From the NCBI GenBank assembly GCA_000092065.1, contig CP000589.1: a stretch of DNA of 64,000 nt; one strand, given 5' to 3'. Below the pieces are notes generated by a model. It saw only the letters and a program-made list of their open reading frames with translations. It made no database searches and had not been told where the DNA came from. The position numbers and the translations under genes are program-made. This stretch comes from Ostreococcus lucimarinus (taxonomy: Eukaryota). Shown piece after piece: positions 42,596-45,400 of this stretch (its first letter is position 1; every line of letters begins with the position of its first letter).

Positions 42596-43876
42596 GTGAT
42601 GCATCGCGCCCTCGCTCGAACTTCTCTGCGGGTATCGCGTCACGACTTAACGACATCAATCTCCAGTCCCGCGTCGCACGCGCGTCGTCGCGCGATGCCC
42701 GCGCTGTCGTCCCGAGCCGACGCCGACTCGAAATCTGTCCCCACCGGGTCGCGAGAGCCACACTTTCGGTTCGGTTTGCTCGCCGACATACAGTACTGCG
42801 ACGGCGACGACCGCAAAAACATCACCGGAACGCAAATGCGGAGGTACAGGAACACGCTGAACGTCGCGGAACGGGCGGTGGAGTATTTTAACACGCACGA
42901 GTGTGACTTTTTGGTGCACAACGGAGACATCACCGACCACCAGTGCGCGTTTGATTTCGCGAGCGATGATTTTAAGCCCATCGAGCGCGGAAGAGAGGAT
43001 TTAGGGGCGGTGATGCGGATATTGAGCCGAGCGAAGTGCGCGGAGTGGTTGTTCACGGTTGGGAATCACGAGCTGTATAATTTTACGCGAGAGGAGTTGC
43101 GCCAAGGCGTGGCGAGTCCTGGGAATTCGTTGAATTTGAAATGCTCGAACGCGGATGGGGAGTTTTATTACTCCTTCAAAGCCGGACCGGGATGGCGAGT
43201 GATGGTGCTGGATCCGTACGCGGTGAGTATTTATCGCAAAGGTCGCCAGCAAGGGCTGTGCGAGGAAGCGGTGGAGCTGTTGCGCAAGCACAACCCAAAC
43301 GTCGACTTGTTCGTCAAGGAAAATCCAGACGTGATAGAGACCGAACGCATGAGCGGGACTTTTCCGTACTTCAAAGACATCGAGGGGCTGGCTGGGCGAT
43401 GGGTGCCGTTTAACGGAGGATTGGGGAAAGAGCAAATCGCCTGGGCTCGCGAGACGATTCGCGCCGCGAGCGCCGCAGACGAAAAGGTATTAATCTTCTC
43501 TCACTTGCTCATCCACCCGCACTCCACGGCGAAAAGATCGGGCAAGACTTTGATGTGGGACTACGACGAAATTTTAGAAATTATCGAGGCCGAGGAAACG
43601 CGAGGGTGCGTGAAGTGCGTAGTCTCCGGCCACCAACACGAAGGCACAAAGTGGCAGTGCGAGAAAACGGGCGTGCATTACATCGGCATGGAGAGCCCGA
43701 TGCTAGCCATGGACGTGTCCCCGGGACCATTTGCCATCGTTGAAGTCTTCGATGATGAAATTGTATTCAAAGGGTACGGGCGAAACGAGGACTCGCTCTT
43801 ATTCCCTTTCGATCCAGAAGAACCACCGACGGAGCCGTTGTTGTGCAGTCTTCGTGTGAATTCGCATGATCCTTAG
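42596..43876 (+). CDS. ADPRM: Mn-dependent ADP-ribose/CDP-alcohol diphosphatase (ADPRM-like metallophosphoesterase); N-terminal presequence possible
   Basis: FGLLADIQYCDGDD...RRYRNTL / FTVGNHELYNFTREEL / LLRKHNPNVDLFVKENP / FNGGLGKEQIAWARETI...EKVLIFSHLLIHP are colinear with ADPRM blocks (FGVIADIQFADLED / HTWGNHEFYNFSREYL / ILREHNPNTELNSP / FNGGFSQEQLNWLNEVL...EKVVIVSHLPIYP). Confidence 0.8.
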   Translation: MMHRALARTSLRVSRHDLTTSISSPASHARRRAMPALSSRADADSKSVPTGSREPHFRFGLLADIQYCDGDDRKNITGTQMRRYRNTLNVAERAVEYFNTHECDFLVHNGDITDHQCAFDFASDDFKPIERGREDLGAVMRILSRAKCAEWLFTVGNHELYNFTREELRQGVASPGNSLNLKCSNADGEFYYSFKAGPGWRVMVLDPYAVSIYRKGRQQGLCEEAVELLRKHNPNVDLFVKENPDVIETERMSGTFPYFKDIEGLAGRWVPFNGGLGKEQIAWARETIRAASAADEKVLIFSHLLIHPHSTAKRSGKTLMWDYDEILEIIEAEETRGCVKCVVSGHQHEGTKWQCEKTGVHYIGMESPMLAMDVSPGPFAIVEVFDDEIVFKGYGRNEDSLLFPFDPEEPPTEPLLCSLRVNSHDP

Positions 43877-43879
43877 AGC

Positions 43880-43930
43880 GCCCATCACACCACGTGTTGT
43901 ATTACTTTTACAATCCTTGTTAGTCATATT
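43880..43930 (-). ncRNA. weak candidate SECIS element in the MsrA 3' UTR (AUGA ... AAAA ... UGAU, 36-nt spacing)
   Basis: The minus-strand RNA ...AUAUGACUAACAAGGAUUGUAAAAGUAAUACAACACGUGGUGUGAUGGG has the core motifs at the right spacing and a UUGUA/UACAA apical stem. Helix I/II pairing could not be confirmed by eye. Confidence 0.2.
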
Positions 43931-44064
43931 CTGTCGCTTTGCGATCGTCGCGCGCTTTCATCGGACGAAATCTCAGACGCAATGGCGTCTTTTGCGATTT
44001 CGTCGTCACGCGCGCGCGGACGTCGCTGCGCGAAAACAAATCTACTACTTTGACGCGACGAAAA

Positions 44065-44673
44065 TCACCACCCGAAACGCGACACGCGCGGTTTATTGTA
44101 GTACTTTTGATGGTACTCTTCGGCATCCCACCACGGTGTCGCTAAAGAGACCTCCGGCGGGTAGATATCGGTGAAGAACTTTCGCTGCACTTGCTTCTCG
44201 CGCGCTTCCTTGGACGCCACCGCTTTTTCGTACTGCTCGGGCGTCTGCGCCCAAATAGCGCTCTTATACTGCGCTTTGCTTTCGTACGTGGGTTGATGCT
44301 CGCTCCAAAACTGTTCCAACAGCTTATCGAAGCTCGTCGTCGCCGCGTCGTACGCCACGTAATACCCCTCCGTGTGCCCGGTTCCTCCGGCACACACCGC
44401 TGAATACGTCGGGAAATCGCTCTCGCCTCCTGTGTACCCGACCCTGACGTTCTTCACGCCCTTGAGCGCGCTGAACGAGGCGTCGGGCCCCCAAAATCAC
44501 CCAGAGGCGAAGACGGCGAGTTGGCAATTTTCCGGGACGACGAAACCATCGCCGCGGTCGGTGCGCCGCGCGTCCTTGCTCGCGGGCATCGCGGCGAGCG
44601 CGCGGACGTTTCTTTTGTTCGCGGACGCGCGCGAGGGAGCGGCGACGCGCGCGGTCGCGACGGCAGCGCGCAT
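44065..44673 (-). CDS. MSRA: peptide methionine sulfoxide reductase A, selenoprotein form (TGA = Sec at 44497..44499, replacing the catalytic Cys)
   Basis: Two track ORFs (44497..44934 and 44065..44457) are in the same frame separated only by TGA. Read through, they give ...AVFASG-U-FWGPDASFSALKGVKNVRVGYTGGESDFPTYSAVCAGGTGHTEGY..., the MsrA active-site motif GCFWG with C->U. The downstream segment starts with GTG, not ATG, so it cannot be an independent gene. Start ATG 44673 (MRAAVATARV..., presequence-like). Confidence 0.75.
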
Positions 44674-44845
44674 CGGGACGCGCGTCCCGGTGTGACGTGG
44701 CCGCACAGATTTCGACCGCGCGGGCGCGCGCGGTCGAAATCTGAGGCGCACACCGGCGCGACGCGACGCGCGCGCGAGACGAAAGCTAGAGATATGATGA
44801 GTAAAAATATTAATCTCGCGCGCGACGACGACGGCGAGCGCGCGA

Positions 44846-45400
44846 TCAGCGCAGGATGACCAGAGACCAATCCGGGAACTTTGCGTTCCAGTATCGAACG
44901 CCCATCTGCGCGAGCGTTCGCGAGTTATCGTCAAACTTCTTCCCCGCGTACGCCAAGCGCACGAGCCCCGGCATGACTCCAGTTTTATCCGCGATGAGCT
45001 TTTTCACCTCGTTCACGCGCGTGGTGTCCGAGACGTCGATCCAGAACGGCCCTCCGTACTCGCAGTCGACGTGCAGCATGCTCGTGACGAGCAGACGCAG
45101 CGTCTTCGGCGGCTTTCTCATCGCCGCCACTTTCGCGTCGATGAAGCTCCCGAGCGGAATCCCTTTCGCCACGGCCTCGGCTTTATCCTTCAAGTATTCC
45201 TCGCGCGTCGGATCGTACATGGGCGTCCACTCCGAGCTCACCCCTCCCTCCCCGCGCGTCGCCGGCGCGTACCTCTCATCCTCCTCGTACCACGGGTACC
45301 CACCGTTCGGCGGGATCGTCGCCGTCGCCCCCGACCCCCCGGTCCCGGGCGCGTTGTTATACTTTGAAAACGCGAGGTCCGAGCTTCGATACGTCGGCAT
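44846..45400 (-). CDS. ubiquitin-like-domain protein (C-terminal beta-grasp Ubl)
   Basis: C-terminal FWIDVSDTTRVNEVKKLIADKTGVMPGLVRLAYAGKKFDDNSRTLAQMGV matches ubiquitin-fold spacing. Confidence 0.55.
   Translation of the reverse strand: MPTYRSSDLAFSKYNNAPGTGGSGATATIPPNGGYPWYEEDERYAPATRGEGGVSSEWTPMYDPTREEYLKDKAEAVAKGIPLGSFIDAKVAAMRKPPKTLRLLVTSMLHVDCEYGGPFWIDVSDTTRVNEVKKLIADKTGVMPGLVRLAYAGKKFDDNSRTLAQMGVRYWNAKFPDWSLVILR

Follow-up and report, generated by a model that had tools for sequence, protein, structure and literature searches.

Evidence for the Sec codon and SECIS element of the published selenoprotein MsrA in Ostreococcus lucimarinus, a gene split by gene calling

MsrA, peptide methionine-S-sulfoxide reductase A, is an enzyme of protein repair. 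The first eukaryotic MsrA found to contain selenocysteine (Sec) was that of Chlamydomonas reinhardtii (AAN32904), reported by 2002. MSRA is counted among the most widespread Sec-containing families of algae, and a Rhod-MSRA selenoprotein gene cluster has been reported in some Mamiellales (Jiang et al. 2020, PMC7539508). The closest description concerns Ostreococcus itself: MsrA is one of 29 selenoproteins assigned to O. lucimarinus, with the location Chr_9 [236068, 236619], and an MsrA of O. tauri is listed too (Lobanov et al. 2007, Genome Biol 8:R198, PMC2375036). The passages of that paper on SECIS structure state that a G immediately precedes the core in all O. lucimarinus elements except one, that Ostreococcus elements typically have long mini-stems and that none found in O. 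lucimarinus was of type I. Labelling of O. tauri cells with 75Se is also described there, in an account that apparently assigns no band to MsrA (Lobanov et al. 2007, PMC2375036).

The window analyzed here is a 64,000-nucleotide stretch of O. lucimarinus DNA, and the preliminary description of it had proposed that a Sec-containing MsrA of a Mamiellales alga is split in two by ORF callers at positions 44,065 to 44,673. This proposal is correct but not new, since the gene is the O. lucimarinus MsrA selenoprotein published in 2007 (Lobanov et al. 2007, PMC2375036). The O. lucimarinus row of Additional file 2 of that paper equals the read-through translation over the residues shown, apart from machine-reading errors (matching printed rows: MRAAVATARVAAP..SRASANK, R-NVRALAAMPASKDARRTDRG-DGFVVPENCQLAVFASG[U]FWGPDA..FSALKGVKNVRV and GYTGGESDFPTYSAVCAGGTGHTEGYYVAYDAATTS.DKLLEQFWSEHQPTYESK). 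The published interval also fits: Chr_9 [236068, 236619] is 184 codons long and, after subtraction of an offset of three 64-kb tiles (192000), falls on window positions 44068..44619, in frame, from the last sense codon to codon 19 of the gene in the window. The offset is itself deduced, and this in-frame fit is good evidence that the window is chromosome 9, 192001..256000, of O. lucimarinus. The published protein and the one read here are the same, and nothing biological differs between them.

On the minus strand, a single frame of 202 codons extends from 44673 to 44065, and its only internal stop is one TGA (44499..44497). As had been described, the two minus-strand ORFs of the mechanical list (44497..44934 and 44065..44457) lie in one common frame and are parted by this TGA alone, at which the list splits the gene. 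The complete coding sequence (44065..44673, 202 codons and a stop), supported by the translation, the Pfam PMSR match and the published MsrA, begins with an ATG at 44671..44673; an in-frame 'MRA' stands at the matching place in every orthologue that reaches far enough upstream. Residue 59 corresponds to the internal TGA (44497..44499), at the catalytic position of G-C/U-F-W-G, and the true terminator is a second TGA at 44065..44067, which is TGA or TAA in the orthologues. The downstream ORF is as the preliminary description gave it, but the argument attached to it, that a GTG start prevents it from standing alone, is weak by itself.

The context of the internal TGA is AVFASG-TGA-FWGPDASF...GYTGG (translation ...ENCQLAVFASG*FWGPDASFSALKGVKNVRVGYTGG...), and the codons on either side of the Sec site give LAVFASG-U-FWGPDASFSALK. 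The N-terminal extension, up to about residue 45, is rich in Ala, Arg and Ser and by its composition is probably an organelle-targeting peptide. The C-terminus ends with ...KYYNKPRVSRFGW and has no C-terminal Cys.

When Cys was placed at the TGA, the read-through protein gave one uninterrupted match to Pfam PMSR (PF01625) over residues 53-195 (E = 1.3e-38; 133 bits, the cut-off being 23.7). This match covers profile positions 2-147 of 153 and assigns the protein to the family over the whole domain. MsrA chains in the PDB were matched at E-values down to 6e-31. The cysteine of the GCFWG column is catalytic throughout the MsrA family, and in the alignments this is the column occupied by the TGA: it corresponds to Cys51 of E. 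coli MsrA (1FF3, FAMGCFWG; printed numbering), to the GCFWG Cys of bovine MsrA and to a Cys in 6/6 full-length homologues aligned (from bacteria, archaea and fungi). The motif thus reads G-[UGA]-F-W-G with the UGA at the catalytic nucleophile, as had been claimed from the letters alone, and homologues carry the catalytic Cys, not a non-catalytic residue, at this point. Sec stands at the same column in the published MsrA of Chlamydomonas, O. tauri and Thalassiosira (Lobanov et al. 2007, PMC2375036), so that the site forms a Sec/Cys pair, with Cys in six homologues, UGA in the seven orthologous loci considered below and Sec in the published MsrA.

The same alignments bear on the idea that an intron removes the TGA, or that the two ORFs are separate genes, which would agree with the shortness of the region 5' of the TGA and with the two ORFs returned by ORF finders. 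Both the Pfam and the PDB alignments are gapless and continuous over the TGA, and no intron is needed because the family match does not break there. Removal of the TGA would moreover take the catalytic residue out of G-C-F-W-G, and the downstream piece by itself would be an MsrA without its active site. We consider this explanation close to negligible.

In comparison with the Cys-containing MsrA proteins of E. coli (1FF3), cattle (1FVA) and poplar (2J89), the window protein has the same PMSR fold and the common GCFWG, GYxGG and GHxE motifs, together with, close to the C-terminus, a motif of the AEEYHQ type, which the E. coli and bovine chains have as AEDDHQ/AEDYHQ. It differs from them in having Sec where they have Cys at the catalytic position, and 6 residues are missing from the loop that follows 'PT'. 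The C-terminal resolving cysteines of the E. coli enzyme, Cys198 and Cys206, have no counterpart in the window MsrA. Alignment with the Chlamydomonas MsrA, which had been suggested as a check, showed that the two proteins belong to the same family and that Sec occupies the catalytic column in both (...FALG-U-FW... in Chlamydomonas); they also have VCAG..GHTE and the shortened PT...SK region in common. The Chlamydomonas protein, from another green-algal class, has neither the long N-terminal extension nor a Cys at position -9 relative to Sec, and reads UFWH where the window protein reads UFWG.

The closest relatives in the databases (P0001-P0007) have 71-97% identity and about 125-144 aa, and all of them start just past the TGA column, which suggests the same cut in their genes. 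Remoter homologues with 49-54% identity (P0017, P0023 and P0036, one of them an MMETSP transcript) show a similar picture: the predicted proteins begin right after the Sec column and have the signatures QYKSAIW and WWDAEEYHQKY in common. From this, they are probably further Sec-MsrA genes cut short by gene prediction.

Orthologous loci were collected from marine metagenome contigs. Loci L001-L009 represent seven distinct sequences (L004 and L005 repeat L003), and their gene order is kept across related loci: α/β-hydrolase, ubiquitin-like protein, MsrA, metallophosphoesterase and Vps18. With the frames extended upstream, an in-frame TGA was found at the identical position, VFA(S/L)G-TGA-FWGP, in all of L001-L009; it is invariant in 7/7 distinct syntenic orthologues, while adjacent third codon positions vary. 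Residue conservation continues 5' of the TGA (GDGF.VP..C.LAVFASG) back to the MRA start. Within the 18 codons upstream, pairwise differences at codon positions 1/2/3 numbered 42/48/218 (169 synonymous and 66 non-synonymous), and within the 18 codons downstream 94/74/191 (120 synonymous and 109 non-synonymous). These counts indicate that both flanks of the TGA are translated in one frame, and the codons upstream of it in the orthologues are under purifying selection in that same frame.

The terminal stop behaves differently, being TGA in L006, TAA in the near-identical L007 and TAA also in L003 and L008. This drift between TGA and TAA, beside a fixed internal TGA, implies that UGA still serves as a terminator in these genomes and that the internal one is constrained in another way. 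The terminal codon in this way offers a neat internal control, the constraint being confined to the internal TGA.

These data weigh on two further explanations. The first is that MsrA is a pseudogene, inactivated when its catalytic Cys codon, TGC or TGT, mutated to the nonsense codon TGA: a single base change turns a Cys codon into TGA, and gene callers treat the TGA as a stop. However, none of the seven distinct orthologues, even at 71% identity, has lost the TGA, purifying selection acts on both of its flanks in one frame, and every lineage has a covarying SECIS behind the gene. Nor does the window hold a Cys-containing paralogue that could compensate, since tblastn found in it only the MsrA gene itself. 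Loss of the gene by mutation is in our judgement extremely unlikely. The second is a sequencing or assembly error, the real codon being TGC or TGT, which has nothing in its favor beyond the general possibility of such errors. Against it, the exact 130-aa C-terminal piece, preceded by the same stop, is called on contigs in 30 blocks of independent metagenome assemblies, the neighbouring locus occurs in 703 blocks, where the gene calls show the same split, and the same TGA is present in divergent species; Sec was also read here in the published genome analysis. An error of this kind is barely credible.

One further locus was left out of the orthologue set on account of a frameshift. L010 (positions 84-722) carries an MsrA orthologue near L003, whose frame is shifted 5' of the conserved C-terminal half, although the SECIS remains whole and scores 67 bits with a covariance model built from the MsrA SECIS elements. 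The cause is either an indel introduced by the assembly or the recent decay of the gene into a pseudogene.

A SECIS element of type II was located in the 3' UTR at 43948..44018, on the minus strand like all of its parts. It begins 47 nt past the stop, inside the distance of about 1 kb downstream within which the preliminary description had expected such a structure, and its core lies about 490 nt past the Sec codon. The convergent metallophosphoesterase gene, which ends at 43876, leaves room for only a short 3' UTR. The 5' core, GUGA (44006..44009), consists of an unpaired G and the UGA of the non-Watson-Crick quartet, and TGAC is invariant there in the 3' UTR alignments. It is followed by the 5' arm of helix II (GACGAAAUC, 43996..44004), which was found both by folding and as an inverted repeat and pairs over 9 bp with the 3' arm (GAUUUCGUC, 43964..43972), compensatory changes being present in 9/9 helix pairs. 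Between helix II and the mini-stem an internal loop holds the unpaired AAAA of the AAR motif (43990..43993), 12 nt after the UGA and with an invariant AA. The apical mini-stem, or helix III (AGACGC/GCGUCU, 6 bp, loop CAUU; 43975..43990), covaries in 4/4 modelled pairs. The 3' core is CGAU (43960..43963), whose GA forms sheared G.A/A.G pairs with the 5' UGA and in which GAT is invariant; helix I is GC-rich according to folding. The element has the features of a eukaryotic selenoprotein gene, namely a UGA...GA core, helix II and an unpaired AA 10-13 nt from the core. It agrees with the published O. lucimarinus type in its G before the core, its type II form and its long mini-stem.

The 101-nt region 43930..44030 (minus strand) folds at -49.5 kcal/mol (z = -4.15), and none of 200 shuffles was equally stable. 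A SECISearch-like pattern (RTGAN, a helix II of 8 or more pairs, AA after 9-13 nt and a 3' GA), run over both strands of the window, gave one match, which was the 43948..44018 element. Markov-random sequence of the same composition gives about 1.5 pattern matches per 128 kb, and the chance of a match in a 190-nt UTR on the right strand is on that basis roughly 0.002. No further SECIS emerged in the window: a covariance model from the seven MsrA elements gave matches at chance level (E-values of at least 0.09), and the pattern scan had no second match.

An equivalent SECIS was present 21-67 nt past the stop in all orthologues, with GUGA in all but L002 (AUGA). RNAalifold, applied to a plain MAFFT alignment, recovered helix II and the mini-stem, and 13/13 pairs showed compensatory changes. 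In the alignment fitted to the covariance model, 87.5% of the cells were paired, against 26-41% when the partner was slid by 1-3 columns; all 13 of the 13 modelled pairs had changed on both sides, and the observed covariation was reached by 0/500 shuffles, counts that come from only 7 sequences and from an alignment itself fitted to the structure model. Over the whole 3' UTR alignment, the SECIS kept its TGACG core, its AA and its GAT without any change, and invariant columns elsewhere were only scattered.

The preliminary description had placed a weak SECIS candidate elsewhere, at 43880..43930, and this candidate did not survive. Its fold is weak (-11.8 kcal/mol, z = -1.14; 24 of 200 shuffles were equally stable), the pattern scan did not match it, its motifs are unconserved and its 3' TGAT is already gone in L001, the 97%-identical orthologue.

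A scan of 43600..44700 with Rfam at E ≤ 10 returned no SECIS family (SECIS_1, RF00031, included), and its single match, fiv_FSE at E = 8.9, is attributable to chance. The element has in common with RF00031 and its relatives helix I, the UGA/GA non-Watson-Crick core, helix II, the unpaired AA and the apical stem-loop, but differs from these families in its G (not A) before the core and in its 6-bp mini-stem. The miss is ascribed to model coverage and not to a missing element because the other SECIS tests gave positive results; it is likely that the seed alignments hold no elements of the Ostreococcus type (G before the core, long mini-stem).

The SECIS and the terminal stop also bear on a selenium-independent decoding, in which a near-cognate or suppressor tRNA would insert Cys or Trp at the UGA. 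Cysteine can indeed enter at Sec codons in other eukaryotes, where the Sec machinery is able to insert it under selenium deficiency. Yet UGA is also the real terminator of MsrA and swaps with TAA in the orthologues, which argues that UGA is not reassigned, and a conserved SECIS would be pointless without Sec machinery. A selenoproteome of 29 genes has in addition been published for O. lucimarinus (PMC2375036). Decoding of this kind is very unlikely, although of the four alternatives it is the least remote; even all four taken together are very improbable. We conclude, with a probability of about 0.96, that 44673..44065 is an intron-less nuclear gene predicted to encode MsrA with Sec in place of the catalytic Cys, by SECIS-dependent decoding of UGA.

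If the established eukaryotic Sec pathway operates here, SBP2 would bind the kink-turn core of the SECIS (GUGA/GA) and recruit eEFSec with Sec-tRNA[Ser]Sec, upon which the ribosome would decode the internal UGA as Sec, and the second UGA (44067..44065) would end translation of MsrA. Following the known chemistry of MsrA, the selenolate of Sec59 would attack the sulfoxide of Met-S-O to give a selenenic acid. A resolving Cys might then form a selenenylsulfide, and thioredoxin or a similar reductant would regenerate the enzyme. Candidates for this Cys are Cys50, nine residues before Sec, and Cys94, both of which are invariant in 7/7 orthologues. Residue 196 (44086..44088) is Asn in the window and in L001, L002, L008 and L009, and Cys in L003 and L006/L007. 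A C-terminal resolving cysteine at residue 196, if there is any, is possibly lineage-specific. The lack of a C-terminal Cys (YYNKPR, against YYCKPR in two sister lineages), together with the invariant Cys50 and Cys94, suggests a lineage-specific resolving Cys or direct reduction of the selenenic acid. It is a tentative and rather doubtful proposal that the Sec-MsrA of Mamiellales may recycle its selenenic acid in a way unlike the textbook three-cysteine MsrA.

Two genes flank MsrA in the window. On the plus strand, a metallophosphoesterase resembling the Mn-dependent ADP-ribose/CDP-alcohol diphosphatase (42695..43876) is convergent with it, with about 190 nt between the stop codons, and on the other side a ubiquitin-like domain protein is encoded at 44846..45400 (minus strand). 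The Rhod-MSRA cluster of some Mamiellales is absent at this locus. No tRNA genes (tRNA-Sec included) and no component of the Sec machinery were found in the 64-kb window.

A perfect 17-nt inverted repeat (CAGATTTCGACCGCGCG / CGCGCGGTCGAAATCTG, with a 4-nt loop) is situated 33 nt 5' of the MsrA ATG (44706..44743), in the stretch that separates MsrA from the ubiquitin-like gene. Five orthologous loci, including L001 (with an MsrA 97% identical), were searched and have no equivalent of it, and the hairpin was dropped as a regulatory part of the MsrA system because of this absence.

The metallophosphoesterase neighbour is indexed with the exact sequence of the window in 703 metagenome blocks, Tara Oceans assemblies among them, which indicates that the organism is very abundant. 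At loci L001-L010 and L011-L022, the metagenome orthologues of window 43876..44850, every gene call splits MsrA, leaving a C-terminal piece of 97-144 aa, with or without an N-terminal piece of 58 aa or a similar length. Gene calling of the prokaryotic style, like calling based on Rfam, thus overlooks MsrA in all metagenome records examined.

Biologically, the locus adds nothing new, as Sec-MsrA had been known from Chlamydomonas and this exact gene of O. lucimarinus catalogued. Its practical value lies in placing the Sec codon and the SECIS of MsrA at exact coordinates and in two failures of annotation that it documents: standard gene calling breaks an abundant marine MsrA into pieces of 58 aa and 97-130 aa in every metagenome record examined, and the SECIS of the Ostreococcus type goes undetected by the Rfam SECIS models. 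As the case of MsrA shows, a recoded gene of this family can be recovered by a reader from the raw sequence.
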